From Candidatus Goldiibacteriota bacterium (lineage in GTDB: Bacteria; Oederibacteriota; JAAXVQ01): DNA of 60,348 bases. Shown piece by piece: positions 4,510 through 47,800 of this stretch. The stretch is from NCBI GenBank assembly GCA_020052235.1, contig JAGVPM010000119.1, forward strand, positions 1 to 60,348. The letters are read 5' to 3'. The notes under the pieces are model-generated. The model made no database searches. It was not told the DNA's origin and saw only the letters and a program-made list of their open reading frames with translations. The position numbers and the translations under genes were made by a program. Numbering within the stretch: position 1 is the first letter of the stretch; the number at the start of each line of letters is the position of its first letter.

Positions 4510-4578
4510 CTATTTTCTAATTCCTAAACCACGCGCCATTTATCCGCCGGTTAAGACAGCCTGCAGGCGTTTAAAAAT

Positions 4579-7500
4579 TTAAGCTGCGTCATCAATCCCG
4601 CGGTGGAAAATACCCGGAACCAGTTGTTGCTGCGCAGGTGCAACCCGGAATTGCAGTTGATTCAGCACATCCAGCACAATTCCCCTTTCATGTCCCCTTC
4701 GCAATACGCCTGCCGGCAATATCAAAGTTTGGAGTTGGCCGCCGATAAGCAACGCTCCTTGATATTGAATTTTAATTCGAACCACTTGTCCGGCGGCCAT
4801 CTGTCCGGCCGACTGGGAGAAACTCATCAATTGCGCCAATTTGTCCGCTTCCGTGGCTGCCTGACTAACTGCCAGCTGCAACTGAGTTGCCCAGGAATCG
4901 CCCTTAGACTGGCGCTGCGTTTGGGTTGACCGCTCTTGCAACTGGCTTTCCAGCGAACGGTTAAATTCAAACTCGGCTTTTGGCTGCCGCGCAGCTTCTT
5001 CAGCCAAACGGAGTTCCAAATCCGTGGCAAACTCTCCAATCCTAAGCAAGGCAGGTGTGCTGAGGAACCGAACCTTTACCTCGCTCTGCAAGGCCCGTCC
5101 TTCATCATACAAACGTTGCAGCCAAGTGCGCTGCTCGGGCTGCTGCAAATGTTCCAGTTCGTGAGCCACGATTGCCAACCGGCGGATCTCCGGCAACGCA
5201 TTTATATTTTCATGAAAATATAATTCCCGGCCGCGCACATACGCACTGCTGCCTCCCAACCATAAAAGCCGCCAAAAAGAGGGGCGAATAAAGTTCAGGC
5301 GATTCTCCAAAGAGGCCGGCACATTCTGAGTCAACCCCTCCAGCCAAGATTTCCAATCCGCCGGTACGTCCACGAGCCCTTGCACCTTGCGTACGTCTTG
5401 CCTGAAATCCTCATAATCGTACGCCTTGGCCGGGCGGCCATAAAGAGAACGCAAATCCAAAACCCGCAGCGCAAAATATGGCGCGAGCAGCAAGGACAAA
5501 CCTGTACCCCAGCCCATTTGCATATTCCAGCCCGACAAGGATATCAGCACATCCATCACCATGCCGGCGGCGACCAAAACCACCCCCGGAGTAAACATGG
5601 ATTTTTTATGCGTATAGGGATTAACCCGTCCGGTGGTTTGCGGCTGGTATGTGGTGGTCAGGGCAACTTCGCCGAATACCGCCAGCAAGGTTTCATCGGC
5701 CATGGCTTTCAAGTCCGTTTCAGGTGCCGCGCGCAACGGCAAGAGAGCATCGCGAATCGTATCCACGGCTGCGATAGTACCCAAGGCTTTGATAGCCTCA
5801 AATGCCGCTTCCCGGTTGGCATTGGGCACGCGCAACATATTGGCCAGCGCATTAAAAATCAATTCCTTTTCGAGCGTACTTTGTTTAAATTCCGCCAAAG
5901 CTGCTGTGCGGGATTCGCGATTAAGCAATCGTTCCAACAATTGCATTTCAGGTGACGGCTGGTAGGCTCTCTGTTTTTCAGCCAATTGCTCTTCCGGTTG
6001 TTTTTCTTTTCCTTTATATTCCTGCTTTAGCTTGGGGCTTTCAGGCCCGATATTGGGTGCCGGGGATACGGGTTTAATGGCCATCCGGAATTGATCCGCG
6101 GTGGCCGTGCCGTGTTTGCGTAAAACCAAAATCTGAGTCCAACGCACTGTAAACGCCACTACCGGTGCCCCAGCAGCATTCCAGAGGGCGTGGACTAATG
6201 TGCTCCGGGTCAAACCTGCCAACAAGGCCACCAGCGGCGCAGTCAGCAAGGTAATAGCCCCTGCATTCGGCAGCAGGCCTGCCAACACTGTGACTGCCGC
6301 CCCTATGGACAACACGTTAAACAAACCCGTGACCAGGCTGCGTATAACCAACTGTCCGATGGTTTGGCCGGCTCCATGCGCCAGCACAAATTGCTTTTGA
6401 TAACGGAAATTAATCAACCCGGCCAGGACAATGGCCAAGGGCACCAGCAGGCGCAAATCCAGGCTGAAAAAAATCCCGGGCAGAGCTACCAACAAACCGG
6501 TTATGACAGGTAATGTCCTCCCCTGCCGAAACGCCTCCCAAACCCCGCGCAGTTTGCCCTGATTGGCACTGGAAATATTTTTCACCCGCGTGCCGATCCC
6601 GAATTCCTCCACCAGGGGAATACCTAAAAACGAAATTCGCGCCAGGCGCGCGGCCAGTCCCGATACCCCGGGTAATCGTAAAAGCCGCGAGGCCGGTAAA
6701 GCTGCCTGAAACGAACCGTCAAGTTTGACCTCAGGCGCTTCTTGGCGGATTATAGTTTCCGCTTGGTGCTGTAAGGTATAAATTCTCCGTAACACCGCGC
6801 CCGGATTACCGGATTCCGGAACATAATATAAACCCTGTTGCATTTCTGTATATAAAGAGGTTAATTTTTTATATTGCCCGCTGAGCGCCAACTGCATAAA
6901 TACCCGGCGAACCGGCAGGAACGAGTCCATGGCTTCCACATATTCCATAAACGTCGGCTCATTATTCTGCATGAGCCTCAAGGCATAATCAATCGTTATG
7001 TGTCCCATTCCTTTCCAATATTGCGCCAATTGCATGAAATTTTCAGGTTCGTGCGTGCGCCAATACGCATGGGTTGACTTATCCAGACCAGGCTCTGCCG
7101 CAGGCGCCAGCAAGGTTTGGTACTCCGGGCGCAGGGCAACTTGCGCCTGTTGCTCGGCTTGACGAATGCGGGCATTGGCTTCCTGTTGGCGCATACTACG
7201 CGCCAGGGCAACGGAAGAAAACCATATTTGCCAACCCGGATGATCCCAAGCCGACAAATCCCAATTTTGTTTCACATAGTACCTGGTTCCGGCAATCCAG
7301 CGGTCGCGAACCAGGCGCGAAAAAACCGGCAGCTCGGGAGTAATAAAATCCGGTTCCAATTCACCGGGTTTAGTCTGCGCTTGCAAACGCGCGGGACTTT
7401 GATATATTTGAGGAAACACCGTGCCCACCAAGCGGGCCACCAGGGCTATTGCGCGGGCTTCCCGGCTCTGTGCAGACCCCTTCAGAACACCCATGGCGGC

Positions 7501-10500
7501 TAAAACACCATCATACCCCAGGATATCTATGCCTGAATACACCACCGGTGCCGCCGAATGCGCAAACAAACGCCCGTGTATTTTTTTAGGCGCATTCGGC
7601 AGTTGGCGCAAAGTATCGGCCACGACTTGCAGCGTGCTGCTTTCAGAACCAATGTCCACCACGACCAGTTCTTTAAACTGATCCAATCCCGCCTGCTGCA
7701 GGAAAGATTTCAATGCCGCCGGGTCCTGTGCCATATCGGGGGTGATGTACAGTCCTTTCACCGCTTGCGTGTTACGCCCGGAGCTGTCGAGAATCTGAAG
7801 CGCTTGCGAATACATCCAGCCGCTTCCGTAAAGCAAATACACGACTCCAACGTCATTGCGGCCTGAAACTTCGTGACTTAAAAAACCATCCAACAAAGAA
7901 CGATTAAACATGAACAGCTGCTGCATGGCGTTTGATTCGAACAGGCGATCCACAAACATTTCCAGCAAACGTTTGGCTTTGCCCGCGCGTTCGGAATTTT
8001 CCGTGTCTTCGGCCAAGATGGCCAGCCGGTCCATGAGGATCGGCGCGGCCATGGGTTGCTCGGCAGCCATCCCCATTTCTTCCAAGGCCGCCACATAGCG
8101 GGAGATCTGAAGATGAAATTCCAAGTTCGCGGTCATTTCCAATGTAAACGCATCCACCAATTCCACCAACGATTTGGTGCCGCCGGACATTGGCACTTGC
8201 CGCCTTTGTGCCTCAAAAATCAAGCGGCCGGTCAATTGGGACGTTACCTTCTGATCCACGAATGCGGGATGATTCCGGCTTAAAAAATTCAGGGCTTCTT
8301 CCGCCCAGGTTTCATTCAGGGTATCCAACCGCGCTCCCAAACGCTGCATGCGATTGACCCAGGCCAAAACCACAGGCCCTGAGAGGCCTTCCAATTCCAG
8401 CGCGCCGGGGTCGTCACGGAGTTGGCGTTTGACCTGTTCAATCCCCGATGCATCCAATCCCCCCAATTGAATCACTTGTGAAATAAACCGTACCCCGGCA
8501 TCAATGCGGCGTTGTTCCTCCAAAGGCAACACATGTAAAACCGCATCACTTAAATTCGGTTTGCTTGCCGTGGGTAATACCGGCATGGTAGTAGGCTTGG
8601 ACGCGAACCAAGTTCCCGGTTGTAAAATCCGGCCGGAGGTTGCACCCATCATCCAGCCTGCGCCAGGCACCAGCAAGACCCCGGCCGGCAATGCGGCTTG
8701 CACTAGTTGCAAGCGCAGCCAATCCTGCGAAATCCCGACCTGTCCCTGAGCCGTAAGCGTTTGTATTGTCCGCTCCCAGGACGCTTGTTGAAAATAGGCA
8801 ATCCGAACATCATTAAGATCCGCTGAATACAAAACGCCTTCCAGCTCACTGGCGTTTACCGGCGCTGCATGCAGCACGGCAAAAAAAGGCGCGTTTTTCA
8901 TGGGTACGGCCCAGCCCAGCGGTGTTGCCACACTGTGCGCCAGATCCGGCTTAACGGTCTGGGTATTGGCCTCGTACCTGGCCAACAGAGCTTCAAACTG
9001 GGCCAGCAATGCTTCCAATCCCTTTACGCCCTGTTGCTGCAAATAATGCAGTGCATCCAATTTAAGGGTTAATTCCAGCCAAGCATAGGCCGTGCGCACA
9101 TCTGCCGTTAATTCGGTTTGTTCGTTTAAAATCCGGGTAGTTTGTTCCGAGAGCGCAAAAAACGGTTCCAAGGCCACGGTCTTTTGGGTTTGCGCCAACA
9201 ATTTTTCCAAAGGCGTCCTGCGTTTTTTCAATAATGAAAAATAAGGATTCAACAGGTCTTGATGCGTCACATTCGGTTTGACTTCCAGATACGAAACGCC
9301 GCGCATCCGCAACTGTTCCAAAATTTTCGGTGAATGAAATCCACCGGTAATCAACACGAATACCTGCGCACGCTGAGTTTTGATTTGCCGCAGCGCAGCT
9401 TCCGCAAAATCCCCGCTGCGGATATCGGCATTGACATAAAACGCAGCAGCTTTCTGTAAATACTCGTCGAGTTGAAAAATTTCCGTTTCCAGCGTTTGGC
9501 CATCCTGGGCATCGTACGTTTGGAGAAACTCGGCAATGTGTTTGATTTGAAATGCATCCGGATTATTTTGATAAACTTTAATTTCCGCGGGCGACGCGGC
9601 GACATTAAGCATTTTCTCCATAATGTCCACGCGGTGGCCGATCTCATCCAACAATCGGTCCTCATCCCTAGCATACAAAGGCCGGCGGACTTCCTTGTCC
9701 AACAGTTCCGCTTCGGCATACAACCGGTCGGAATCAACACTTTCCGGAATCACCGCAGACGCATTTTCCAAATAACCGCGCACATTCGGAAAACGATCCA
9801 AAGCCACGGCATTTTCCCTGGCAAAATTCTCCAAATAACGCAAATATTTATAGAGCGACATGGTTCCGGAGTGAAACGCTTGTTTTTGCTGATCCAGCTT
9901 CAACAAACGCGGATTAAAGAGATTTTTTTTGGCCTCATTGAGGCGTTCGCGCAGATCAGCGACGTAGCCTTCGCATTCGTCGGTTAAAAACGCCAACACC
10001 ATTTGGCGTGCAGCCCGGTAATGCTCGGGATTTTCAATTCCCAATAAGTTAACTTTCCGTTTGCCCGTGGCCGCATAATATTCCGCGCCGGAAATCTTGC
10101 CTTGCCGGATGAAATATTCCCCAACGCGCTCCCTTACCACAGGAATGGGAAATGTGGATAATTTGGTCACATTAACGGGTTTATCCGCGCCTTCGATCGC
10201 CACCCATTGCAATCCGTGTTTCTCAGCCAAATAATCCAAAAGATTGGCGATATTTTTCTGCACTTCATAATTGCAATGCAGATCTTGAATGTGAATGACG
10301 CAAGGGCCAGTGCCTTGCCATTGCTCGAGCACACGGCCATAGGCTTTGGGAATTTCAATGAACTCTGCGGACTTGTCCCCGGGCGCCTGAAATGCCCAAG
10401 CCAGGTGAGGAAGGAGCATGGCAATACAGATTAACCATGCCAACAAACTTCGAATCAGTTTATATTTTGGTTTGGCCCATTGGCCTATTGAAAAAAAATC

Positions 10501-10515
10501 TCGGAATAAACTCAT
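4579..10515 (-). CDS. Giant membrane-anchored multidomain protein (1,978 aa), paralogue of the 5,660-aa ORF
   Basis: Uninterrupted 5.9-kb ORF with RBS gagggggg 6 nt before the ATG. It has an N-terminal signal-anchor, a shared ~380-aa module, HEAT-like repeats, a CPBP-like membrane module and a C-terminal HELEH zincin motif. Confidence 0.9.
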   Translation of the reverse strand: MSLFRDFFSIGQWAKPKYKLIRSLLAWLICIAMLLPHLAWAFQAPGDKSAEFIEIPKAYGRVLEQWQGTGPCVIHIQDLHCNYEVQKNIANLLDYLAEKHGLQWVAIEGADKPVNVTKLSTFPIPVVRERVGEYFIRQGKISGAEYYAATGKRKVNLLGIENPEHYRAARQMVLAFLTDECEGYVADLRERLNEAKKNLFNPRLLKLDQQKQAFHSGTMSLYKYLRYLENFARENAVALDRFPNVRGYLENASAVIPESVDSDRLYAEAELLDKEVRRPLYARDEDRLLDEIGHRVDIMEKMLNVAASPAEIKVYQNNPDAFQIKHIAEFLQTYDAQDGQTLETEIFQLDEYLQKAAAFYVNADIRSGDFAEAALRQIKTQRAQVFVLITGGFHSPKILEQLRMRGVSYLEVKPNVTHQDLLNPYFSLLKKRRTPLEKLLAQTQKTVALEPFFALSEQTTRILNEQTELTADVRTAYAWLELTLKLDALHYLQQQGVKGLEALLAQFEALLARYEANTQTVKPDLAHSVATPLGWAVPMKNAPFFAVLHAAPVNASELEGVLYSADLNDVRIAYFQQASWERTIQTLTAQGQVGISQDWLRLQLVQAALPAGVLLVPGAGWMMGATSGRILQPGTWFASKPTTMPVLPTASKPNLSDAVLHVLPLEEQRRIDAGVRFISQVIQLGGLDASGIEQVKRQLRDDPGALELEGLSGPVVLAWVNRMQRLGARLDTLNETWAEEALNFLSRNHPAFVDQKVTSQLTGRLIFEAQRRQVPMSGGTKSLVELVDAFTLEMTANLEFHLQISRYVAALEEMGMAAEQPMAAPILMDRLAILAEDTENSERAGKAKRLLEMFVDRLFESNAMQQLFMFNRSLLDGFLSHEVSGRNDVGVVYLLYGSGWMYSQALQILDSSGRNTQAVKGLYITPDMAQDPAALKSFLQQAGLDQFKELVVVDIGSESSTLQVVADTLRQLPNAPKKIHGRLFAHSAAPVVYSGIDILGYDGVLAAMGVLKGSAQSREARAIALVARLVGTVFPQIYQSPARLQAQTKPGELEPDFITPELPVFSRLVRDRWIAGTRYYVKQNWDLSAWDHPGWQIWFSSVALARSMRQQEANARIRQAEQQAQVALRPEYQTLLAPAAEPGLDKSTHAYWRTHEPENFMQLAQYWKGMGHITIDYALRLMQNNEPTFMEYVEAMDSFLPVRRVFMQLALSGQYKKLTSLYTEMQQGLYYVPESGNPGAVLRRIYTLQHQAETIIRQEAPEVKLDGSFQAALPASRLLRLPGVSGLAARLARISFLGIPLVEEFGIGTRVKNISSANQGKLRGVWEAFRQGRTLPVITGLLVALPGIFFSLDLRLLVPLAIVLAGLINFRYQKQFVLAHGAGQTIGQLVIRSLVTGLFNVLSIGAAVTVLAGLLPNAGAITLLTAPLVALLAGLTRSTLVHALWNAAGAPVVAFTVRWTQILVLRKHGTATADQFRMAIKPVSPAPNIGPESPKLKQEYKGKEKQPEEQLAEKQRAYQPSPEMQLLERLLNRESRTAALAEFKQSTLEKELIFNALANMLRVPNANREAAFEAIKALGTIAAVDTIRDALLPLRAAPETDLKAMADETLLAVFGEVALTTTYQPQTTGRVNPYTHKKSMFTPGVVLVAAGMVMDVLISLSGWNMQMGWGTGLSLLLAPYFALRVLDLRSLYGRPAKAYDYEDFRQDVRKVQGLVDVPADWKSWLEGLTQNVPASLENRLNFIRPSFWRLLWLGGSSAYVRGRELYFHENINALPEIRRLAIVAHELEHLQQPEQRTWLQRLYDEGRALQSEVKVRFLSTPALLRIGEFATDLELRLAEEAARQPKAEFEFNRSLESQLQERSTQTQRQSKGDSWATQLQLAVSQAATEADKLAQLMSFSQSAGQMAAGQVVRIKIQYQGALLIGGQLQTLILPAGVLRRGHERGIVLDVLNQLQFRVAPAQQQLVPGIFHRGIDDAA
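5116..5268 (-). other. Zincin-like HExxH segment resembling the DUF4157 motif (aa ~1750-1800)
   Basis: SSAYVRGRELYFHENINALPEIRRLAIVAHELEHLQQ. The HELEH codons are at 5149-5163, checked against the DNA. Confidence 0.5.
6136..6648 (-). other. Multi-pass membrane module with a CPBP/Abi-like HxxxN motif (aa ~1290-1460)
   Basis: PLVEEFG, FVLAHGAGQTIGQLVI and STLVHALWN. Homologous to two to three modules in the 5,660-aa protein (IHTLWN). Confidence 0.45.
9151..10308 (-). other. Shared N-terminal module of the giant proteins (aa ~70-455); possibly Tiki/TraB/ChaN-like
   Basis: IQDLHCNYEVQ, IEG, GAEYYAATGK, ITGGFH and NPYFSLLKKRRTPLEKLLAQ align colinearly with aa ~90-470 of the 5,660-aa protein. The family assignment is from motif memory only. 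Confidence 0.4.
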
Positions 10516-32804: not shown

Positions 32805-35800
32805 CTACGCTGCCTGATCCATTTTTAAAGACGGACGCTGCATGCCGGGCAATTTCCTGCGGTCAATCCATATGGGCATGGGTGCCATCAATTCTGACAA
32901 CGCGCCTTGCAAGGCATTGGTCTGCGGCATTAGCAATAGCCGCGGTAAAAGCAACTTTACGCGCTCCAAGGTACCATTAACCTGTACTTGTCTAACCCCG
33001 GCCACAAATCCCTGCCAAGCCGGAACCTTGGCTACCAAATCCAGCAATGTCCGAGTAGACTGTATCCGTTCGGCAGGTTGTTCCTGGGATTGAATAGCCG
33101 AAACCATGGCTCCCAGGAAGACCTTGGCATTGGCATCCGAAGGCCGGGCACTCCACTTCAAATACGCCTGATTAAGTTTGCCTTGACGCAAGTCCTGCGC
33201 CAAGCGGGATTCATCCTTGCCTAATTGTACCCTGAGATAATTAAGGGGCGCTACGCCCATCCAAATGCGATGAAGGGCATGCGTCATCCAACCCAAAGGA
33301 AGCGTATCCTGCAAAGACGTGGCTGCCCGGCGGCTCTCAGCGTTGATTTGACGCATATGATATTCCAAGGCAAGCCGCATTAAATATCCGGAAAATGCTC
33401 CCCGGTTCTGCATCATACCCGCCGGAAGATAAATGGTCGGCGTGCCTTGATCATTATATACCACCCGCCCAAAGGGCGCAGTCCATTGTCTGAGCCATCC
33501 GCCCGGAAGGCGATTCAGGGCCTGAAGGCCTACGGGCAGGTTGTAATCACCGGCGCCGTATTGGGCCATAATTTTCATGGCCGCGGCCTCGTATTGACTC
33601 TCGGTCAGCAGCTTGGCCCAAGCCTTGTTGCCTTCCGCCACCCGGATGCCTTTTTCAGTCTGCCCGGCCAAGTAGAAAAGCAAGGCGCCTTTCACCATAT
33701 ACAAAGCTCCTTGGAAAAATTGGATCATGCCGTCCACGGGCATTCGCAATCCCGGCTGCCCGGCTTGGCTGGGATCGGCGTTAAACAACACGCTGCGCAA
33801 CAAGTAACTCGTCAAACGCGACACCCAACTGCGTTCTCCAAAATAGGGCCGGTTGACTTCCCCGCTTGCGGCTGCCTGCGTTTCCGAAGGCTCTTTTTGT
33901 TCCTGAATTAAGACTTCGGCCGTACCTGCTGGGGTTGCTTGCAGGCGCGCCTCGGCGAATACATCGCGGCCCCAGGTCAGGGTTGCAACCAAGGCGCTGA
34001 ACCCATCCGTCAATGAGACCAGCAAATGATTCAAGGTATTCCCGATTTTCGGAATATGTTTAAACGGCAGCAGGCGTTCAAACCGCTCGTGCCAGCGAAG
34101 CCATGTGCTGGTAAATGCACCGGCGTACTCCGCATATTCCGGGCGCACGCCGCGGGTGCCGGGCGTGGCCATGACTCCGCCGCGCGAAGCAATAAACCAG
34201 GACCAGAAATTTTGCTTCCGGCCGACTGGCTGAGCGGCATTAAAACGCCGCCACAGGGATAACAGCATGGCTTCTTGAATTCCAAAAAGCAACGCACTAA
34301 TCACGGGCACGAACCATACTCCCGACAAGACAGCCAACGACGTAAACACCACGCCGGATAAAACCACATTGGCCACGGACATGGCCGGCGTTTTTTCCTT
34401 TTCCATTTCCTGGACCTCGGATCCGAAAACCGCAAAATGATTCTCCTCAATCTGACGCTGTCCGATCATATTTAAAGCCGCATGCCATCGAATGTCATAC
34501 CGTGGCGTCTTTGTCCGCGAAAGCTCGCCCAATTCCTTGAGAATACTTAAAATATCCTTATAATAAGTAACATAGTGACGGTTGCTTAAAACCGCTTCAT
34601 ACGCATCGGCAATGGTCACGGCGCGGCTGATGTCCGAAACCTGGTTGCCAACCAGCTGATCGGGATATCCTTTTCCATCCAGCCATTCATGATGCCGGGT
34701 TCCATCCACAATCTCAGCCGGAAATCCCAAAGCAGTCAGTAGTTTCGTACCCAACCTCGGATGCGTTTGCAGCAACGCCCGCTCCGGTTCCGTAAGTTCC
34801 TGAGTTTTATGCAACAGACTCAAGGGAAGCAGGATTTTTCCTGTGTCATGCAGCAAGCCGGCGTAAAGAAAACTTTCCACCTGTTCCCGGGTGAAGCCTT
34901 CTGTGGCATTGGCTTTCCCGAATACCGCCGCCATTTCCGCCGTGATCTGACCAACCCACCAGGAATGCGCAAAGGAATAATCCGGATCAAATCGGTACAA
35001 CAAAGTCAGCAACAACCAAATCGTAAATTCCTTACGCTTGGCCTCACTGGCTCCTTTGAAATCCGCAGCCAAAACCTCTTGAATCCATTGATTCAACTCC
35101 TCACCGACGGCGGACACTTTTCGTTCCAACTCGGGGGACCAGCGTTCCCGCACCTGCTCTGCGAGTTCCAAATCCGTCATGAAAACACGATACCGATTTA
35201 AAATATCTTCCGCGCCTTGTAATACGGCTTTACGCCGCTCAGGCGTCAAAGCTCCATACTCTTGCATAATCCGCCGGAAGGAAAATGACCGGGCATTCAC
35301 TGAAAATGCCCGGGCAAATTGACGTTCCGCCTTAAACACAGAACTGGTCTGCAGTTGCTTGCTGCGCACCTGGCGTATGGTTTCCTTGAGTTGAGTTAAA
35401 TAACCGGCCGTTTGCAAATCAAACGGTCCAGCAGGCGCCATATTGCCATTGGCGCGCATTTGATAATTATGCAAATACCCTGGAATGGAATTTGCTCTGG
35501 TTTCGAGATCTGAAACCGGCACCACCACGGGGCCGTAGATCCGGTCATCCAACCGCAATACCTTTCCTCCTGTCCCTTCCAGGTAAAACTTAACCCCCGC
35601 CACTTTGGTTTCAATGACAAACACTTGATCAAATTTCCATGCAATGGCCTCAAACCCGGATTGCTGCAACCGCTGGGCGATCAACCAGGCTGCAGGGGCG
35701 CTTAAATTGGGATACCGAATGTCATCGGCCAAATCCTCCAAATCGGATTTGAGCGATCCCAGAACTTGATGGAACCGGGCCACTTCCGGTGCATCCGCAG

Positions 35801-38800
35801 CAGCAACCGGCATTTTTTTCTCTGCCAACACGCGCTGCAACAAAGCATCAAATTTCCCGGCCGTCGTATTCGCATATTGGGTTAACTTGCCATTTTGATC
35901 CATTTCCGCAAACTGGGCCGTTACCATGTCCACGGCATAATGCATAGCCGCCTGCTCGGCTGCTGGCAAAAATGCCAGCATGTACCCGTTTACAGGCTCG
36001 GCCAAGCCGGCCAATTCGCTGATTAAAAATTTACGGGCCTCTGTAGTCTGCAAATCCACTTCAGCCAAATCCAGGAGCGCTTGAATAATAACCCCAGGTT
36101 GGGGATGCGCGCCGCGCATGTGCCCGAGAATAATTTTCACGGCATGGATTTCCTGGACAGCTGTCACAAGCTCCCCAGCTGGTGTTTTCACCGACAATGT
36201 AAAAACCTCGGCTTGGCCCGGTAAGACAGTTGGGAGCTGAAGGCGGCGAAAAACCCTTTCGAATTTGTGGCCATTTTGTTCCACGGGAACCACAGTTTTA
36301 TAATAGCCACATCCTGCAATTTCGTGTCCTAGACTATCCTTGACAACGACCGCACCGCGTAAATTTTCCGGTGAATGACCTTCTTGTTCAAGTTTGGCAA
36401 GCGTTCCCGCAATCTCGGCCGGCAAATCAATCCACATTTCTTTTTCTTTATGGTCTTCAAAAGACGCAACCAAGATACGCTGAACTTGGCCGCGGAATGA
36501 ACCGGCGGTATAAAAATAATCGCGTCGACTGTTATCCAATACTTCGCCTACAAAGCCGAGTTCTTTAAATGCCTTGAAAACATCATCTGCATTAAACCGA
36601 TGCCTGGCCGTATAATCGTGATCCTCGGACAGCGGCATGCGCATTTCCCAATATGACTGGCCGTTGCGCAATTCTTTTACCGTCTGCGGGTCACCCCAGC
36701 GATCGCCAAAAGTAAACCCGATAAAACGCGCCGTATCCCCGGGGAAATTTGCCGGATTTGCATAATAAGCGAGCGCTTTGATTAAATCATTTCGCGTGGG
36801 ATATTTGCGCGGATCGTCATGGGTACTCATGCGCTGCCAGTCAAAATCAGTAGCCGTAATGCCATGGCGCGCGATTGAAGGTGCGCGGTTTTCGAATGCT
36901 TCACCCATTAAAAAAGCGTTATTTTGTGAAAATACACGGGAAAGTTTTTCAATAAAGTCATCCTCAGGTTCATCGCCATGTCCGAACTGACCATAAAACT
37001 TATATGCAAAATGCAGCGCGTCGCCTCGGGCACCGTCGAATCCGGCATCCAGCCAATATTTCGCCGGATCCAAAATGTAAGCATAATCGTCCGCTTTTAA
37101 TGCTGTCCAATTCCATAACGCAAGATCCCCCCAGCGTTCGTTAAGACCATCTTTCACAACTCCAGGATGAAGATGCGGAGCGCCTAAATAACGTTTTTCT
37201 TTATCACCCCAGAGCAATGGATTTAACTTTGCCCTGAAGAACGGCAGATCAAATAAAACCTTGCCTCCGGCTTTGTGTACCTCGTCGATGGCCGCTTTCA
37301 GCTGATTATATCCCAACCACTGGGCGTGTGCATGGCGCCGCATCTCGTCATTGAAAGCCGGTTCTTTTTCAGCGGCTGCGATATCGTCTTGAGTCCAGGT
37401 ATCAATCGGCTTTTTAATGGTATCAATTAAAGCGGCTATCCGGCAATACCGTGGCAGCCAGCTTGCTCTTTCCGTTTCAAATGCTTCGAATTCCAGGGCG
37501 CGTTTATTTGATTTCGCTAAATCTCCCGCTTTAAATGCCTGCCAAGCTCCGCGCGAAATTCCCAGAACCCGCTTGCGAAGATTATCATAATCTACCTTGG
37601 TTTGTTTTTCAGGCGGTGCATGAATAAGTGCCATTAGATTGAGATCGGCCTGAACCTCGGTTACCTTCGACCAGTCAATGTCAAGTTCACTTACTGACCG
37701 CGGATCAATGGCCGCGTAGGGACTTTGGTCAGCAACGGCCATATGCGGCAAAAGCAGCATAATACCGATACCCAAAGGCTTTAAATATTTTTTGTAATAA
37801 TCAGCCAATCTGGAAAAAACCCCAATACCAGAATCTTTCGATCCGTCTTCCGAGCGCAAGGAGTATACTGGGATTGTTTCAGCAAAAAATTGATTTGTGT
37901 TGCTTCTCCACCAATTGCTTTTTTCATATTGCAGTCGCGCCCTGTCTAAGCAAGCTTGGGCGGAATCGAAACCATCGCTGCCGTCCGAGGGCATAAGATA
38001 CTCGGCCACCACGCGGTTAAATTCAGCTACGCTCCAAGTTTGTGAATAAGTACCGCCGGGAGTCTGGCGCATCGGAGCATGGGCCGGGTTACCACCGTCA
38101 AACACTTCCGGAAGAGTGAGCCTGAATGGTTCGGCGCCCCGCGGCCAACCGGAATATGTAGGCCAAGTGTCAGGATGAGTGGTATTTTCATACCATCCGC
38201 TCAGAAAATCAGCCAACCCCGTCAACCGCTGGCGAGCTGCTGTACGTACCTGATTTTCAGGAACATTGGCACCGCGCAGAACATTGATGAGCGCATCCGT
38301 TCCGATTCCTGAAAGCCATGGCCATACGGTTCCCTGGTGATATGCATGATCCTTATCTTGCGGTTCCCGATTGGTCTCATAAATCGAATGATATTGCGAA
38401 TCCCGTGGTGACAGTGTCCGGAATCCGAAGTGTGTCAGTAAATCTGCTTCTGCCGCTACCAACACCGCAGCTTGCCGGTCCCAACTCAAGAGATCCCCCG
38501 CCGCCGCGACCGCAAACAGCATATTCGGACGGATTGCATCGCCATGCGGATCGCCTTCGACCACGTCTCGCAGGACGCCACCCACAGAGGCGCGCAGTTC
38601 CTGCGCTTTATCTTCAGGGAGGTTATTTTCAGCTATAAATTTATCGGCGGTTCCTTGCCACGCCCGAGTATTTTCTTCGTTTTTAAACCAAAACTTATCG
38701 TTGAACGATTGTTTAACGCGCCCCGCAAGACGGGCGTAGTTTTCGGACTCCTTACTAGTTCCGCTCTTCTCTTCTGCAAATTCCATAAACTTAAGCGCCG

Positions 38801-41800
38801 CGTACCAAAGCGCGTTAATCTCCACGGGTTTGCCATTCCGTGGCGTGACCGGGTCCTTGCCGTGAATTGCCGCATCCATCCAGGTCGACTGCGCCGGTAC
38901 TGCAATCAACGCATCCGCCGGATCCATTTTTATCGGGTTAAACCGATCGTTGCGATAATATCCAGTTCCTTCGCTGTAATTTCGTATAATCTCCCGCATG
39001 ACCGGCATCATGTCCGACAAGAATTTTTTATCATTGGTATATTCATAGGTTTTTTTAACCGCTTGAAAAAATAAAAGCGATCCGTCGGAAGTGTTATATT
39101 CATTTTTATCCGATTCAGCGGGGCTCCAAATACGGTTTGGAATCACGCCATTTTTAACGCGGCGGGCAAAATTGCGCAGCAAAGTTTCGGCATCATCAAA
39201 CCGGCCTTCCACCAGCAATGTGCCCGGCAGCGAAATAAACGTGTCGCGGCCCCACTCCTCCTGAAACCATGGGTGCCCTGCCCAGATCTGCGGAATGCCG
39301 TTCCAACTTTTTACAAACGTACGCACGGCATTTGAACCCAGGAATAAAAGCCTGCCTGTATCCCGCCATACATTCGGCATGGTTTTCGTATCATCTGTGA
39401 TACGCCCAATTAATGGTTGGACGGAACTTGATTTCGGCCTGATAATTATTCCAGATGCCAGTCCGGGAATCCAGCGCACCAGGACTGTATTCCATAAAGT
39501 GTGGATTACCAGAGCAACCGCAAATCCGAGCACCGCCCCTGCCGTGATTCCCCAGACCGCAGCCAAGCCAAGCATTCCGAGAAGGCCCAGCGCAGCTCCG
39601 GCAAAAACCGCGGCAGCCATCAGCCCGGTTAGAATAACCAATTGCCCAATATGGGCTGCGGTTATAGGAACCGACTGATAATTTTCCGTTTCCTTGTTAT
39701 AAACCAGAACAGTCCTGCCATGGAGCAAAGTCATGGCTAGGGAGGGAATGCCCAGCGAAAGCAGACCGGTCAATGTGGGGTTGGCCAGAAAATCCGGTGA
39801 AAGCTGGAATACCCCCACGACTCCTAAAGCCAAGGCAGTGGTTTCCAACACCAGGGCAATCATTGCCCGGCCCCAATGGATTTGGCCGGTGGTTTTATCC
39901 AAAACCCAATTTTGAAACAGACCAATCACACCAAGCGTAATCCTGCGTGATTCAGAAGTGTTTTCGGTAATCCTTAAAGCAGGCGCGGATATTTTTTGAA
40001 TTCGCAGTAATTGTGCAACGAAATAGTCCAAAGATTTTTTAAGCGAACCAATTTTATCTCCAACCGGGATAGTCAAATCACTCACGTGAATACTTTCTTG
40101 GAGTGAGTCGATCATCCGAAGATAGGCTTGCGCGCGTTCATTATTTGTATCATTTTTATTCAACGTGCGCAGGAACTCAAACAACCAGCCTGCCTTGATA
40201 TGCTGCGCGATTTCCATGCCTGATCCACCGGATTTGTTTTCATGCAACACGCGCAGTGAATGTACGAGCAATCTTTTAAAATCCGTCAGCCCTTTTTTAT
40301 CGCCATTGCGGTAACCATTGAGTCTGTATGGAGTTGCGATAGCGTCGCCATCTAAAAGAGTCATGATCATACGGGTTGTGTCCGGATTATTTTCCAACGT
40401 TCGGATAAAATCATCGATTTCGGATTTGAGCGGAATTTCCTGCGGCTCATATTTCTGAGAGAGTGATTTATCATAATCAGCGTTAATAACTGTTTCCAAT
40501 TGATTAAGCAAACCCGCGAATAAATCGAACTTTTCCCGCAAACTAAAAACTTTATTATCCGCCTCCAATTCCTTCAACCACTCGGCAATCGGTTGGAAGC
40601 GCTCCTCGCCGATTAATGTGGATAAATAAACCCGGAAACTGCCGTTGCTGACATGCTCAAAGAGTGCATTAATTTGGCCGGTGAAATGAATATTATCGTA
40701 AATCCCTCCGAAAGAAATGGCTCTGAACAGCTTTATAAAATCCCTCAGGCCGCGTTTGGCCTGATGGGTTGAATACCCGCTAAATCCCGTCCTGGGGCTA
40801 ATATTGAACAGATACGGGGCTATTTTTTCATTTCCCGTCAGGAGTTCGGAAATATAATCTAGCTCCGCCTGATTGCCGGGAAAATCAGTTCTAAATTTTT
40901 GCGCAAATTCTCCTACCAAATTCCGAATCTGGGCTTGAGCCTGTTTATACGTGGTGATCTTAGCATTGTAATAAATCAACGACTCGGCTGCGGTATTCCA
41001 GGCGGTATAAACCACTGTCCCAGCAAGATGGTCGCGGCAAGCCCGGACCCAAGGCAAGTTCACAAAAGATATCGCGGCATCATCGTAATTACGGCTTTGG
41101 TCCTCTTTTTCAGCACGCATGGCAGCTATGCCGGTATCGAGCAGCATAGCCGGATCTTCTTGACCATTTGGAGAGAAAACGACATCGAATGATCTGGATG
41201 AGCCAACAGGTTCAATTTTACCCGTGGCAGGATTATAAATGCCCTCGTTAGCGCCATCGCCTAAATTGCCTTCGCCATGAAGTTCATAAATCGATACTGG
41301 TTTGCCATTTAAAAAGCCATACGCTGTATTTATCACTTGATAACTAATATTGGGGCCCAAAGCACCCGAGGCTTCCCTGACCTCGCTGGTTCCCGTGGCT
41401 TTCCAAGAGGGCGTCATAGCGCCGGTTGCGCCGATAAAACCGGCTTCTTTTAATGCTGGCTCGTAAGCAGGAACAAACAGAACCTGGTCCGGCGCGTCCT
41501 GGACACTTTTAATAACTTGCTTAAATTTTCCTTCCAGGGATTTATGATGGGGTTGCACGCGAGCCAATCCGACGAATTGGTATCCTTGCTGCGCAACGCG
41601 TTCCAATTCCCCGATGATGCGGGCATCAAATTTTTCCGGCACTAATCGGCCCGGGTACATAACATACGGGTGAGTGGGATTTAAATAAAACCCCATGGGT
41701 TTTAATAATTTTTTTCTTTCTAAAAGAGACAAAGAATTGCAGAAACTGTCCGCGATATTGGCCGCCGTCATGGAAAAAGCACTGGAATCGCCGGGAATAT

Positions 41801-44800
41801 GCGCCCGTAAGTTTTCTTTTATTTCCCGGATAAGCTTATCCCGCAATGGCTGGTCGGGTATTAATTCCTGCAAAACGATTTGTAATGAATTGCTCCACCC
41901 GTCCAAGTCCGCGGGCATTTGAAATCCCATTCCTTCAAATTGCGCATATAATTCGTTTCCAATTCGTTTTATGCCTTCTTGGTCCAAAGCCTCGGAAAAC
42001 TGAAACCGTCCAAATTCTTTAATCAAAATAAGTTCTTGCCAAGTTACGGTTTCAGGATTCCGGGGATTTAATTCTGACTTGGTAATGTACGTTTGAAAAA
42101 CATGATTGACTTTTTCCAGCATTTGGAGAACTATCGCCACCCGGACATCGATCGCTTCACCATAATAGAACGAAACGGCTAAATCCATAACCTCGTCCGA
42201 GCTGGTTTCCTTTTTTTCGGCCAAAGCTTGCAATCGCTGGATTTGCTTTTCCCTAGCTTCGGCGGGGAGTTCATTTAAAAATTCGTTCAACTGATTTTGG
42301 ATAAAATCAGCTCGTTGATCCGCATTGGGCAACCGTTGCGCTTCATTCACCCAAGTTTGCCACTGAAAACCCATCTGTTTCACTGCCTGATATTCCACAA
42401 ACCTCGTTTTTTCAGAGGCATAACCTGCGCTTTTTAATTGTTGAATGATTTCGCGGCCGTCTTTATCCTGGTTTAACTCATTTTTTATCTCAATAAGGGT
42501 TCCATAAGCTTTTTTCACAGGCTCCAAAGTATGGTCCACATCATCGCCATTCGCAATGGAAACTGGCAAAGCTTCATGATCGCCAATTTTACTTATAATT
42601 TCACGCATCTCATTTGTGACAACATTACCGGTAATTTGAACAAGGTCAGCATAATGCATAATAAAATTTCTTTGATTTTGGCTCACATACCGGCCGCCAT
42701 GGGGTTCGCCGTCATTGCCCGCGGATAAACCAAACCCGCTAATATCGACTCTTTCATTCGCGTAACTTGCCTGGGCGGCAATACGCAGCGGAATGCCGGC
42801 GTCTTCGCAATAAATTTTAAAATCCTCGAAATTCCAAAAAAATTGCCGGTTGCCATACGTGTGGGAATCCATCACGGAAAGACCGGTTTCAAACCCAGGA
42901 TACGCGGCGACTAAAGCGGTTTGGCCGTCATTGGCGATGATATTATTTTTTTGGTAGGACGAACCTAATTTTTTCTTAAGTTCTTGATTGCGCCGCTCAA
43001 TCGCAGTGGTAAATGCTTTGTATAAGAAAAAATTCGTTTCCATTTCCCCGTGAGGATTGTGTTGGCTGCCATAAGCGTATAAAACCGGCAAAAATTCAGG
43101 TTGTTCTATAAAACTAACCCGGACACCGTTTTGCTTATAATAGCCTTCCTTTACTTTCACTTCATATTCTTCATATTCAACCACCGGTTTGTTATCCTGG
43201 TATTCTTTGAAAGGCCTGCCGTTAAAGCATTTGGGCATTTTAATCTTAAAGGTATCAACTACTCGGGGCTCATCCACCCATTGGTACGCACCGTCTTTTC
43301 CGCTTACTTGCGAAACGCCTTTCAACCCCAGCGATCCTAAATCAATCGGTTCTTTATGCCCCGCTGAATTAACCTGATGGGGATAGGAAACAGTCCAGAC
43401 GGTTTGCTGGGAACCAAAAGGATCGCGGGGATCTCGAATCTTCGCATTCCAGTCTATTCTCGTAGCAAATAAATTTTCAAATCCGTCCATAATGGTCTTG
43501 ATCACATGGGACAAACCGCCACCGGTCGGAAAAATTTCCGCACTAATCAAATCCAAGGGACGGCCCTGCAATTCCCGCAAAGTCTGAAACCAACTACTGG
43601 GAACTTTCTGGTACATGAGCAGGGTCTTGAGCGCCAGGGTGTTGTTGTGGAAATCGCTAAAATGATTTTGCATGGTATTCAGCAGCAAATCATGGAGCTG
43701 CGGGCCGGTTCCCGGGATGAATCTCAACCGCACCACAGCATGTAAAAAGGGATAGTATGGTTCGATCATATCAAGCGGAAACACATTTCTTAACTGTTCA
43801 CCCATCTGATCTAAAAAGGTGATTAATTCTTGCTCCGCCGAGGTTTTTTCAAGCAAGCCGGCGTTATTTAATTTATTTAACCGTTCTTCCAATTGCTCGC
43901 GGTATTTGGTCCAATCTTTTGATTTTATGAGGTCAAGATAAAATTCTTTTTGTGAGTCCGTTAGTGCTCCGGATTGTGGCTGGGGGCCAAACCCAGGAAG
44001 CCAGCTTTCCTTTTCGCCCACCATAGCGGCGGCCAAACGTCCGCTGCTGTTCGGGACCAGCAGTAAATTCCAGAGGGTGTGGATAGCAAGCGCGGCCAGG
44101 AAACCGAAGGCCGTACCGAGGGCAAGGCTGGCGGCCAAAGGCAAACCAGCAATTCCCGAGATTCCAGCCAGAATGCCGGCGGTGATCACACCCGACATGC
44201 CCACGTGAACAGCCAGCAGGGACAAATAATGATACCATTTCGAGGTAACTTTTACATACCGGCCACCCATATATATAACCGATTCCCGGCCATGAAAAGC
44301 CGCCATCAAAGCAGCCGGGGCCGCTATTGCCGTAAATTTGGACAGTAAGTTTACTTGAATCCATGGAGTTCCGCCAGAGCCCACCAACGCCAGTGCCGCA
44401 AACACCAATCCCGTAAGCAACAACCCTTCCAACACAAGCGCCACCGCAGCCCGGCTCCCATGCAACTGGCCGGTGGTCTGATCAATCACCCATTCGCGAA
44501 GACTGGGGATAATGGCAGGCACGGCGTTTTGCCGGAGCGCAGTAACGGCCAAGCCCCACAGTCCGCTTGCCAAAGCGAGCATTTCGGCCCAGGTGGCCCA
44601 AAACTCCGAAAACCGGCCCGGGCGCTCCTCGTGGGTGCGTTCGTGCATCTGCACGGCGTTGCGCAATACATTGACCAGCGGGCTCTTGGAATCCTTGGCT
44701 AAACTTTCATATAAAAATTTCGTGGGTGACGCATCCAGGGGAGTGATTGCCAATTGCACGGAATTTTTCATCCAGGACCAGACGGTCTTCAAACGCGATC

Positions 44801-47800
44801 CGTCGATCAGCTCCGATTTCTCCACGGCGAAAATATACAAAAAGTCCAGCAACCCGCCCGTCAGCAACATATTAAAAGTTACTATCCCCGGGACAAACGT
44901 GGGTAATGAAAGAATTGCGCCGTTGGTTAACCAGGTCACGAACGTTGTTACCAGCGTGACCACGGCGCTGGCCAACCCCGAAATACCCAAAACCACGGGC
45001 ACCGAATGCACGGTTTTTGCCAACCCGCGGTTTAAAATCTCCTCGACCAGTGCATCCACCATGCTGCTGACCAATTCCTTGGGTTCGTGTCCCATGAGCA
45101 CCACGGCCCCCTCGGGCGGCCTGGCCAACGCCGCTCCGATCTTGCCTTCAGCCACAATGGGCCCCTGTACCGGATTGATCCAAAACTTCACATCCGCATT
45201 GGGCAACCACTGACTAGCTGCCTGCCCCACCAGAATGACCCGCTTGCCCGACATGTTCGAACGGATAAGGCGCTCAACATACATCTGCGCTTTGGCATTC
45301 CGGGCAATATAACTCAGCAAATTCTTCGCATCCATATTCTCCAGATAGGGCCGAATATCTTTGCCTTGGTAAAAAATCTGCTCGCCTTTAAAACTTAATT
45401 TCAAGGAACCTAAAAATTTCGCAAGCTTGGTCTCGTCCGTAACCTGAATGCCTTCGGATTGGGCCACCCAGGCCAGTGCGCGGAAGATCATGCCCAAATC
45501 CAGAATCCGGTAATTCAAATGAGCGCCTAGTAAACGGGCCGCATCGTATTTTTCGCGTCCCTGGGATCCATCGACGGTAATCAGCCACGCCAATTCCTGC
45601 AGTTTATTCTGCTTTTTCACCACATATTTGGGACGGGTCAAGGCATCATAGAGGATACCCAACTCGGAGGTGAAAATTTGCACTTCACCGCCAAACTCCA
45701 AGTTCGCACTGGCCCCCAACCGGATCTTTAAATCCATATATTGGTCTTGGGAACCCAAGGTTACTTTATAAACACCTGGTTGTACTTCCAAAACCTTGGC
45801 ATTTTTCCCATACACGCCGTTAAACTCCGATTCCTTGCCTTCGGGAACATTCGATACATTTTCCAACACCACATAACCGGATGCGCGTAAATAAACCACC
45901 AACTGCGTCAACAACTGTCCAAAATCCACATCCCCCCGGACGCGCAACGACACGCCCACTACATCCTGAACAATCCGCATGATGGTCTCGTTATTGAAAT
46001 CACCGAGGGTAAACTGGTCCGGTTGTTTGGATGGATAGTAGCGATGCCAGTTGGCGCGCATATTCTCATAAATGGAGTACAAAGTCTTCGTACGTGCCCG
46101 GAGGCTTTCCGCTCCCACAAATTCACCCGGAACCACGGCCGCCGTTCCTTTTAATTGAAAGCTTAAAAGTTGGTCCTCTAAAAGACGACGTTCCTTCTCC
46201 CGGCGATCCGGCTGGATCAGGGAGCGCAAATGCCTGACCAAACTCCCTTGTGACTCATAAAACTTTTTCTCGCGTTCATCGGCAAAACGATTGCCCCATT
46301 CCTTGATCACACCGGCAAACAAACGCTGCAGAAGGCCGCTCTCCGGGCGCTGCTCCACCCGGCCACGGATGCGCTTAACGACCTCAGCCAAGGTCTTCAG
46401 GTCTAATTTCTCAAAAGTGCCGGGCTCCAGACGGTAGCGCCGCATGATCTCAAACGCCGCTGCGTTGGCCTCATCTTCATCCTGCGCCTCCAACTGTACG
46501 GTCAAGGTCATGAGCTGCCGGTGCCGAATTGATTCCAGCAGGGCTTGATATTGAGCAAACGCGTCCTGAGCCGCGGCCAGCCACTGGTTCAGGTCTTGAA
46601 TGACACGCAAACTAACTTCCTGGTCCGAGCCGCGGGTCCACTCTACATCAGGATGCTCCTGTACCAAGGTGCTGCCCTCTGGTTTAGCCACTTGTTCCAA
46701 GTTACTCACGGCCCAGCCGATCAGTTCTGTTTCCAAATCCCGGGCACTCAAACCTTTTTTCTCGGGATGCGCCTGCAGGTAACGTTGCTTGGCATATTTA
46801 CTGCTTGCAACAGCCAGGGAAAATGTCATCGGGAACATAAACCCATGGTTAAAATCGCTCCAGCGGTTCGGCGCGAACGCGGTGGTTCTTAAATCCTTTT
46901 CTTCAATCCCGGCCTTGGAAATTTCTTTTTCATATGCCAAACGCGTCCGGCTGGGCATAACCAACAGAGTCTGGCCCCCAGGCGCATTGAAATCGAGCAT
47001 GCCGCCTTGCCGCTGCACGGCTTCAATCAATATTTGGCGGCGCTCTATGGGCCAGGCGCGCACATCAGCCTGTATGTTTTCCACGTAGTAATAACGGGCA
47101 AAATACACTGCCACATATTCTTGGGCGGCTTTCAACATACTCATCAAACGTTCTTCGCCCTGTTTACCGCCCAAGGATTCGCCGGCCATAATGAAAAAGT
47201 TGTCCGGATCACCCAAGAAAACTTTAAACTGATTACCCAGCTGTTTTTGCAACAACAACAACGCTTGCTCTTTAACAAACTGAGTGATTGCAGGTCCGTA
47301 GATGGTGCGCATTTGAGCAATACCGTCAATAGTCCCGGCCGTAAGCACCACGTCCTTATTATCGCCAAGCAGTTTACGCAGGGCCCTCTGCCCTGTGGAT
47401 CGTTGCGGTATCTTTTGGCGTTTCTCAATGGGCTGGTCGGAAAAAGAAAGCACGGGCCAAGCCAGGCCGGGGAAACGATCCGCCACCCAGTTATTCAGGT
47501 TGTGCAGCAACGTGGCGGTGATGAAGGCCAGCACGCCCTTGCCCACCACCACGCCCGGCGTCAAATACAGAACCGTGGCCATGGAAGCCGCGGGAATACC
47601 CCAAAGCGCAATACTGAAAAACACTCCGGAAATTGCCAAGGTAACCGCCAAGGCAGCCAGCCACTGTCCGGAGCTCCACTGTTTACCGCGGTGCAAATAA
47701 ATAAATCCAAGTCCAAACACCGTAGGAATGGCCAGCAGGAGCGGCAAAGAGGCCGCACCCAGGCCAAACATCAATACCAAAGGCGCAACGCGGAATAAAA

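Follow-up and report, generated by a model that had tools for sequence, protein, structure and literature searches.

Two giant proteins of a Candidatus Goldiibacteriota bacterium share an erythromycin-esterase-like head and belong to a family with variable cargo

Two giant genes in one genomic window

The stretch of DNA analysed here (the window, 60,348 nucleotides, from Candidatus Goldiibacteriota bacterium; GenBank assembly GCA_020052235.1, contig JAGVPM010000119.1) contains two giant open reading frames (ORFs) on its minus strand. Protein A (positions 4579-10515) has 1,978 amino acids (aa) and protein B (positions 32805-49787) has 5,660 aa; they are a short and a long member of the same family. 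A first-pass annotation had read them as paralogues that share both ends and a membrane module and differ in the cargo between. We find that A and B share a large N-terminal region, here called the head, and that in the family defined by this head both ends can remain constant while the middle of the protein is replaced. A profile of 32 diverse heads (alignment A1; residue numbers below are those of A) detects exactly two copies in the window, one in A (E 1e-166) and one in B (E 9e-161). Labels such as P0002 denote individual family proteins, P0002 being the closest paralogue of A.

The shared head domain

Comparison of A with B by BLASTP yields one colinear high-scoring segment pair, which joins residues 1-665 of A to residues 5-670 of B with 34% identity (E 2e-107). 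The colinear N-terminal similarity proposed earlier for residues 70-455 is therefore significant across a head of ~665 aa, longer than had been claimed, and every peptide quoted in its favor (IQDLHCN.., GAEYYAATGK, NPYFSLLK..TPLEKLLAQ, and LPHLAWAF/LPYLSFAF) lies inside this segment. The alignment supports the view that A and B are paralogues through a head of ~650 aa. Ten residues are invariant in the 32 aligned heads (D78, H80, E108, G109, R366, G391, G392, H394, P414, and Y425), which include the constellation D-x-H, E-G, R, GG-x-H, and the head domain is conserved in all 120 relatives of A among the matches listed. These 120 have only aa ~50-455 of A in common, and the head is likewise the only common part of 158 database matches, whose precomputed Pfam cargo is very diverse.

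The predicted fold places the head near erythromycin esterases (Ere). An AlphaFold2 model of the head (predicted local distance difference test score, pLDDT, 87; predicted template-modelling score 0.86) was compared with the PDB by Foldseek, and the top four matches were all of the Ere family: EreC (6xcs; E 1.6e-4, probability 1.0), 3b55, and chains B and A of 2rad. Both 3b55 and 2rad are Ere-like proteins of Bacillus cereus, and 2qgm, which is also Ere-like, follows at rank 10. Of the 32 heads, three match Pfam PF04187 ("Haem-binding uptake, Tiki superfamily, ChaN"; best E 2.8e-5). The initial guess that this module is Tiki/TraB/ChaN-like, for which a structure prediction had been suggested as a check, is thus supported at the superfamily level. 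The His/Glu/Arg/GxxH pattern of the head resembles the paired GxxH motifs, Glu, and Arg of the superfamily, but the first head motif is Q-D-L-H-C-N rather than GxxH. We know of no Ere, ChaN, or Tiki member that heads a polytopic protein of several thousand residues, and in a partial coverage of the literature we found no account of an Ere, PF04187, or ChaN domain in giant or Omnitrophota proteins.

The N-termini of A and B have the features of a signal peptide: a hydrophobic core follows a basic n-region, a proline stands at -6, and the predicted cut comes after A-W-A or S-F-A. Across the family, the motif (F/L)P(Y/H)L(T/A/S)WAF(E/D) recurs at this position. From the textbook signal peptide ahead of it we infer export of the head. 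The signal peptide also agrees with the location of ChaN, Tiki, and PrgY domains, which are usually extracytoplasmic. Just past the head domain, the stretch NPYF.LL...(R/K)TPLEKLLA (A aa 425-445, window ~9181-9243; B aa 446-466, window ~48390-48452) is among the most conserved in the closer subfamily, and A ~433-443 has a pLDDT below 50. This stretch may serve for docking or processing.

Resemblance between A and B beyond the head

Outside the head, BLASTP of A against B returned no significant segment (E 0.35 or worse). The first-pass annotation had placed a common membrane module in both proteins. The module of A (aa ~1300-1460) compared pairwise with the two membrane modules of B, m1 and m2, gives E-values of 0.07-0.4, which are not significant, and hhalign aligns 15 columns around H-x-L-W-N (P 0.0027, probability 11%). 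A match of 15 columns is a motif resemblance, and homology is therefore not demonstrated. Iteration of a hidden Markov model (HMM) from the membrane module of B recovered only its own two copies.

Both proteins end in Ala-Ala, as had been noted. HMM iteration from the B tail recruited 22-23 other family members and never A. By hhalign, the tails of A and P0002 together match B-type tails with E 1.7e-4 over 98 columns, and the A tail scores P 2.8e-4 against an HMM that was built, without A, from the final 70 aa of 23 B-type tails. These profile comparisons suggest that the last ~70-100 aa of A and B are weakly related. What remains of the claim of shared tails is this weak relationship and the Ala-Ala end, and not a tail family into which A is drawn by iteration.

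An equivalence of the zincin-like site VAHELEHLQQ of A with LALEYHMRQ of B was considered and rejected as unsupported. The HExxH of A sits in a separate module (aa 1625-1800), which shows no profile similarity to the B tail (hhalign probability 0.1%) and is common to A and P0004, P0003, and P0017, with AHELEH of A appearing as AHELGH in P0004 (1608-1784). In a greedy alignment of the last 270 aa, the two sites coincide with P 0.05 only. B-type tails have (E/K)YH..Y at the site corresponding to the HExxH of A and never HExxH.

A family defined by the head

Loci were counted in bacterial assemblies with one genome per species (GTDB species representatives). As the earlier reading had anticipated, a search for further members finds many of them with highly variable cargo: the head pattern was confirmed at no fewer than 573 loci, which belong to FCPU426, Firestonebacteria, Omnitrophota, Elusimicrobia, and metagenome-assembled genomes (MAGs) of the PVC group. 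Copy numbers of 8, 6, and 5 per assembly occur among the best 45 loci alone, so that one assembly has at least 8. The nearest relatives of A and B are in FCPU426 and Firestonebacteria MAGs, with those of FCPU426 closest. Family members are typically 1,200-3,500 aa long. Each opens with a head of ~650 aa, in which the signal peptide and the alpha/beta domain are followed by a linker and a hydrophobic segment. Their cargo includes PPDK, SIS, serine acetyltransferase (SAT) with aminotransferase, SecA-DEAD, PGK, PGM, PFK, and PGI, as well as UDPGP, GH77, GH13, protein kinases, histidine kinases, and methyltransferases. By these domain assignments, the cargo consists mostly of enzymes that are normally cytoplasmic or housekeeping. 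No toxin domain appears in the family cargo lists, where the Pfam families are metabolic or signalling. In most members the cargo blocks are interrupted by clusters of transmembrane (TM) helices, and the tails are subfamily-specific and usually end in Ala-Ala.

The Ala-Ala end is enriched in the family. It is present in 51 of 121 family sequences (42%), against 7 of 411 flanking ORFs (1.7%) and none of the 25 other genes of the window, an enrichment of ~25-fold, and a basic stretch usually lies ahead of it. A single terminal alanine is found in 76 of the 121, many of the remainder being cut off by contig ends. In the 23 members with B-type tails the final sub-module of ~140 aa is always C-terminal, and the first sub-module may be split off by inserts. 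HMMs of B-type tails had no match in giant proteins with other heads. The tail profile A3, used as a query, found one fragment only and was uninformative. No transfer-messenger RNA, whose tag ending could be compared with these tails, was found in the window and 57 loci. ARAGORN reports a tRNA-Ser(gga) on the coding strand within the tail-coding part of P0012 in two independent assemblies (L083 6724-6805 and L012 12584-12665), which is probably a false positive.

Clustering of the flanking ORFs of 80 loci revealed no conserved neighbor, with no cluster present in more than five of the 80, so there is no candidate immunity or secretion partner.

Cargo replacement between constant ends

The exchange of cargo is seen most directly in P0009 (2,888 aa, SIS cargo) and P0012 (1,339 aa, GH130-like cargo), which lie between the same flanking genes in two ~95%-identical genomes, from assemblies of two sequencing runs. 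Upstream of both are genes for a secretin, chorismate synthase, shikimate kinase, and PTA, and downstream are CheA, CheC/X, and PilM. The flanks are 94-97% identical at the DNA level, the first 1.9 kb of the gene 94.8%, and the last ~1.1 kb together with the downstream region 93.8%, while the middles (5,657 nt and 1,010 nt) are unrelated. The encoded heads share 95% of their residues and the tails 81%, and head homology stops at aa ~640-645. The same arrangement of a retained head and tail with a changed middle is present in the pairs P0020/P0022, P0006/P0008, and P0032/P0043. At the B locus, synteny with FCPU426 MAG080 extends over four upstream neighbors (45-83% identical); the giant gene there encodes 2,611 aa with a head only 32% identical and unrelated cargo.

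The syntenic replacement, the other pairs, and the family-wide data together lead us to conclude that constant ends with exchangeable cargo are a real property of the family. The proposal of conserved ends around variable cargo therefore holds at the family level, and it is clearer in other members than in A compared with B, where it is secure for the head.

Organization of protein A

All features of A and B are on the minus strand. Residues 1-43 of A (10387..10515) form a signal-peptide-like segment with a hydropathy peak of 2.08 and A-W-A before F, which is probably a signal peptide with a signal peptidase I site. The Ere/ChaN/Tiki-like head domain follows at aa 50-455 (9151..10368) with its invariant D78, H80, E108-G109, R366, and G391-G392-x-H394. 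The remaining shared head (aa 456-665; 8521..9150) includes the NPYF..LL..TPLEKLLA motif and a helical linker, and residues 604-625 of it are weakly hydrophobic (hydropathy 1.48).

No part of A matches Pfam or NCBIfam, and the HEAT-like repeats attributed to its middle were not recovered by either. The cargo block at aa 666-1290 (6646..8520) has no known domain and is absent from P0002. A search of 1.84 billion representative proteins found only 10 relatives of it: a fragment of 143 aa and nine stretches that lie at differing places within other large proteins (1,085-6,361 aa). These large proteins (P0121-P0129) have a different, non-Ere N-terminus and lack the B-type tail module. Since most of them nevertheless terminate in ..A, ..SA, or ..AA, an alanine terminus may be more widespread among such giant proteins. 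A protein search with A aa 660-1978 returned the query alone and, as it also missed the known relative P0002, was uninformative.

A module of ~4 TM helices occupies aa 1300-1460 (6136..6618) and carries PLVEEF..R, FVLAHG, and VHALWN. It is CPBP-like at the motif level only: EE, LAH, and HALWN are present, motif 1 is interrupted or altered in its spacing, and there is no Pfam match. A module of this type occurs twice in P0002. At aa 1625-1800 (5116..5643) lies a putative membrane-tethered module with a zincin-like motif, in which a strong hydrophobic segment (1639-1663) and a weaker one (~1668-1690) precede FHEN..RRLAIVAHELEH. The C-terminal tail (aa 1841-1978; 4582..4995) ends in ..GIDDAA, is homologous to the tail of P0002, and is weakly related to B-type tails.

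Organization of protein B

The enzyme array that had been described in B is borne out by Pfam, with a CMP-kinase-like domain, a weak GT5 match, GDE_C, GH77, and HD-GYP. The head (aa 1-670; 47778..49787) comprises a signal peptide, the Ere/ChaN-like domain at ~70-470, a linker, and a TM helix at 615-638, and is homologous to A 1-665. It is followed by a module of ~4 TM helices (aa 650-775; 47463..47840) that has the full CPBP triad EELLFR, FIYLH, and HNLNN, has a homologue in P0021 (650-773), and does not match PF02517. The cytidylate-kinase-like domain at aa 1403-1538 (45174..45581) matches PF02224 with E 1e-17. Its P-loop is atypical, GSQGREKY against the expected GxxGxGK[ST], and judging from this sequence it may not bind ATP in the usual way.

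Membrane modules m1 (aa 1759-1915; 44043..44513; ..FHGRE.. and IHTLWN) and m2 (aa 3283-3445; 39453..39941; ..LHGRT.., HIGQLVI, and IHTLWN) are homologous to each other over ~155 aa each (30% identity, E 4e-16 in a restricted comparison). The cargo block between them (aa 1920-3280; 39948..44030) has a weak GT5/starch-synthase match at 2200-2296 (PF08323, E 0.018). After m2 come an amylo-alpha-1,6-glucosidase (GDE_C) domain (aa 3498-3862; 38202..39296; PF06202, E 4.9e-88), a GH77 4-alpha-glucanotransferase domain that covers the N-terminal half of the model (aa 3972-4238; 37074..37874; PF02446, E 1.4e-19), and an HD-GYP domain with intact HD and HHExxDGxGYP motifs (aa 4946-5077; 34557..34952; PF13487, E 2.2e-18). 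Hydropathy indicates a pair of TM helices ahead of the tail (aa 5135-5178; 34254..34385) and an estimated ~19 TM helices in six clusters in B as a whole. The C-terminal tail module (aa 5315-5660; 32808..33845) ends in ..KMDQAA and is homologous to the tails of P0009, P0012, P0021, P0025, P0038, and others. Its AlphaFold2 model (pLDDT 77) found no fold relative in the PDB by Foldseek (best E 0.9).

The GC content at third codon positions is mosaic along B. It is 0.58-0.70 over most of the head and the first cargo and 0.56-0.66 in the tail; in the m1-m2 block (39948-44030) it starts at 0.53-0.55 for ~200 aa and falls to 0.40-0.52 from ~aa 2100 onward, and it is also low at aa ~3975-4575 (window 36000-37900). 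This mosaic suggests that the central blocks of B are of different origin.

Genomic neighborhood

Near A, at window 10886-12237 and 16084-17169, are genes for CheD, an HDOD protein, and a GGDEF cyclase, a neighborhood rich in chemotaxis and cyclic di-GMP (c-di-GMP) functions; B itself has an HD-GYP domain. The P0009/P0012 locus adjoins CheA and CheC in a similar way. Directly downstream of B (window 29508-32612, minus strand) are genes for a TPR protein of 755 aa and an AAA_22 ATPase of 272 aa, and the gene for a sigma-54 activator comes next. ExeA/GspA-type ATPases belong to the Pfam family AAA_22. The TPR/AAA_22 pairing is not conserved across the 80 related loci. Two tRNA genes, tRNA-Cys(gca) and tRNA-Gly(gcc), lie between the genes for the sigma-54 activator and the AAA_22 ATPase (29159-29408, minus strand). 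The first 2,000 nucleotides of the window (1-2000) have 35% GC, against ~50% in most of the window, contain a single ORF of 188 aa (440-1006), and may be foreign or non-coding DNA.

A possible membrane scaffold and its alternatives

The interpretation that we favor, with confidence somewhat short of even, is that these proteins, members of a fast-evolving family, are membrane-anchored scaffolds that tether exchangeable enzymes to the inner face of the membrane beneath a periplasmic, hydrolase-like head. The head would be exported by Sec and, once in the periplasm, act as a hydrolase that depends on a metal or else bind a ligand. The TM clusters would thread the chain back and forth across the membrane, and nucleotide-dependent cargo would stay cytoplasmic and tethered; in B this would be the glycogen-related GT5-like, GDE, and GH77 domains and the HD-GYP phosphodiesterase. 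Much of the cargo in the family needs ATP, pyridoxal phosphate (PLP), acetyl-CoA, or c-di-GMP, and the HD-GYP motifs of B are intact, which argues that such blocks face the cytoplasm. Two TM helices separate the HD-GYP domain of B from its tail, so the Ala-Ala end would be cytoplasmic as well. A non-polar Ala-Ala carboxy-terminus after basic residues resembles signals read by ClpX, FtsH, Lon, and Tsp. The basic stretch and Ala-Ala end could thus be a recognition tag for an AAA+ protease or another reader of C-termini, controlling turnover or processing, and cassette exchange would reprogram the enzyme load of the scaffold.

Several points weigh against this interpretation. The part that A and B solidly share is the head only. 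The head model superposes on Ere structures with template-modelling scores of only ~0.24, owing to a large helical insert in the head, and the heads of A and B themselves reach no Pfam threshold, for PF04187 or any other family. Topology was derived from crude hydropathy alone, by which A has no strong TM segment between residues 43 and 1334, and P0010, P0063, P0064, and P0067 have none after the signal peptide, so that their PGK, PGM, and SAT cargo would be exported. Finally, that the Ala-Ala end may act as a degron is an analogy with ClpX/ssrA biology. Anchoring, read from hydropathy, is plausible, and the delivery half of the original proposal is without support, as there is no toxin cargo and no conserved neighbor gene and the cargo is of housekeeping, cytoplasmic type.

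A self-processing polyprotein is the alternative that survives best, although we think it improbable. Embedded protease-like modules would cut the giant precursor at its membrane modules and release the enzymes, the candidates being the Tiki/TraB-like head, the CPBP-like TM modules, and the HExxH of A, with the Ala-Ala tail and linear motifs marking sites of processing or turnover. The Tiki/TraB branch of the head superfamily does include proteases, and B 650-775 has a complete CPBP triad (EExxxR/FxxxH/HxxxN) in successive TM helices. H-x-x-W-N occurs at the end of a TM helix in A, B (twice), P0002 (twice), P0032, P0043, P0102, and P0113, and this region of P0102 matches PF02517, the Rce1-like family, at E 7.9e-4 (20.1 bits, under the cutoff of 22.4). 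AHEL(E/G)H next to TM helices is conserved between A and P0004. Processing of Omnitrophota giants has also been raised on the basis of C39 and S8 domains (West-Roberts et al. 2023). Against these resemblances, the CPBP motif grammar is not enriched, with 15 family proteins compared with 9 in shuffled controls; for this reason CPBP modules were dropped as a general feature of the family. The modules of A and B match neither PF02517 (four modules, E up to 10) nor a solved CPBP structure by profile, and m1 and m2 of B lack the second Glu and the Arg of EExxxR. When the membrane modules were compared with the PDB by profile, the sole match, of the H..WN helix to bestrophin, was due to chance. The membrane would moreover separate the head from cytoplasmic cargo, and no conserved junction motif was identified.

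Export or delivery of the enzyme arrays is less probable still. By the logic of MARTX or polymorphic effectors, the head and tail would be an export or translocation apparatus for the variable middle, whose destination would be the periplasm, the cell surface, or a host or prey cell. The canonical signal peptide agrees with this, as do the members without further TM helices, in which all the cargo would follow the head across the membrane. The strain-level replacement of cargo between conserved ends resembles effector shuffling, and external alpha-glucans could be substrates of GDE and GH77. Some of the carrier lineages are predicted to be episymbionts or predators, and according to published TM predictions most domains of giant proteins lie outside the cell. 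Yet most of the cargo depends on ATP, PLP, acetyl-CoA, or c-di-GMP, substrates absent outside the cytoplasm, and its motifs are intact, as in the HD-GYP domain of B. The cargo lists hold no toxin domains and the loci no conserved neighbor, so there is no candidate for immunity or for type I or type II secretion, and the several polytopic TM clusters of A and B favor retention in the membrane.

It is similarly doubtful that there is no scaffold at all. Here an abundant periplasmic Ere/ChaN-like domain would have been fused repeatedly to unrelated multidomain proteins, the resemblance of the A and B tails and membrane modules would be convergence or composition, and the differences in cargo would reflect ordinary accretion and deletion of domains. 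Such a reading accommodates the restriction of significance between A and B to the head, the membrane-module match of 15 columns, the marginal tail match, and the giants with other heads that lack B-type tails. It is harder to reconcile with the B-type tail modules of 23 members, always at the C-terminus, with the ~25-fold enrichment of Ala-Ala, and with the syntenic locus that keeps ~95% identity in the head and 81% in the tail around a replaced middle; P0020/P0022, P0006/P0008, and P0032/P0043 likewise combine a constant head and tail with a changed middle.

That misassembly, the fusion of gene calls, or a wrong genetic code produced the giant frames, an idea considered only because a 17-kb ORF is unusual and for which no support was found, can practically be dismissed, since the frames are open throughout 5.9 kb and 17 kb under code 11, the neighboring genes are ordinary, normal-sized, and have good Pfam matches (EF-G, CheD, HDOD, M18 peptidase, GGDEF, MetW, sigma-54 activator, and TruA), and homologous giant ORFs are present in hundreds of independent assemblies, including contigs above 1 Mb and complete chromosomes.

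Comparison with known systems

Parts of the proposed scaffold resemble known elements. The H-x-L-W-N of A and B matches the last motif of the CPBP/Rce1 family (PF02517), and B 650-775 has its full triad, but the P0102 match is under the gathering score, and motif 1 is degenerate in m1 and m2 of B and interrupted or altered in A. The family shares with ssrA-like degrons a non-polar Ala-Ala end, often with basic residues ahead; the residues before Ala-Ala are Q, G, S, or D in the family and not Leu.

Glycine-rich repeats, a CPD protease, toxin effectors, and secretion by the type I route characterize MARTX toxins. These toxins are similar to the family in being very large, with conserved N- and C-terminal regions, central modules that vary by recombination between strains, and an internal protease, for which the family has candidates. 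In contrast, the A/B family lacks such repeats, has no conserved secretion genes nearby, and carries housekeeping cargo and polytopic TM modules. Polymorphic toxins (Rhs, CDI) consist of a constant trafficking part and a recombining, variable C-terminal tip, followed by an immunity gene. Common to both are the constant part with an exchanged variable part and the many paralogues per genome, but in the A/B family the C-terminus is conserved and the middle varies, there is no conserved neighbor, and the cargo is not toxin-like. A bolder proposal, which we consider unlikely on balance, is that the head and tail belong to an unrecognized system of Sec-inserted modular proteins in which enzyme cassettes are exchanged between strains at fixed loci and the constant ends, a periplasmic Tiki/Ere-like head and a cytoplasmic tail with its basic stretch and Ala-Ala, insert, sense, or process the cargo, a metabolic counterpart of MARTX and polymorphic-toxin logic.

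Closest to the family among described proteins are the multi-enzyme giant proteins of Omnitrophota, known as "Archaeovorins" (West-Roberts et al. 2023, bioRxiv 10.1101/2023.11.21.568195) and as giants with a "multi-enzyme metabolic cluster" (Nielsen & Lui 2026, bioRxiv 10.64898/2026.06.07.730766). As described there, these giants resemble the A/B family in combining a signal peptide with many TM helices, in their strings of cytoplasmic-type enzymes (GT5/starch synthase, PGM, PPDK, glycolytic enzymes, methyltransferases, HD, SecA-DEAD), and in HEAT-like filler regions, and West-Roberts et al. noted the same inside/outside paradox. Archaeovorins are described as combining numerous TM helices with enzyme domains of glycosyltransferase, glycoside hydrolase, methyltransferase, peptidase, and NUDIX type; B likewise joins TM helices to GT5-like, GDE, GH77, kinase-like, and HD-GYP domains, and A has TM clusters and unassigned blocks only. 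The two papers treat proteins of at least 10,000-30,000 aa, and Archaeovorins exceed 30,000 aa and belong to Omnitrophota, in contrast to the 1,978 and 5,660 aa of A and B, whose nearest relatives are in FCPU426 and Firestonebacteria. N-terminal regions of the giants are generally described as without identifiable domains, and type II secretion homologues are reported near Omnitrophota giant genes (both in West-Roberts et al. 2023, bioRxiv 10.1101/2023.11.21.568195). The searched text of the Omnitrophota papers contained no Ere/ChaN-like head, Ala-Ala tail module, or syntenic cassette replacement. Four Omnitrophota proteins with such cargo (P0063, P0064, P0067, and P0080) do bear an A/B-type head.

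The head is thus a family-defining domain with a predicted catalytic-type constellation and can serve as an HMM for cataloguing the family, and the conserved tail with its Ala-Ala end hints at a recognition step that can be tested. Near-identical genomes that differ in cargo only are a natural experiment. A and B are tractable relatives, 2-6 kaa long, of giants otherwise too large for experiments, and if cassettes are indeed exchanged between constant ends, the same could be an organizing principle behind the far larger giants of Omnitrophota.

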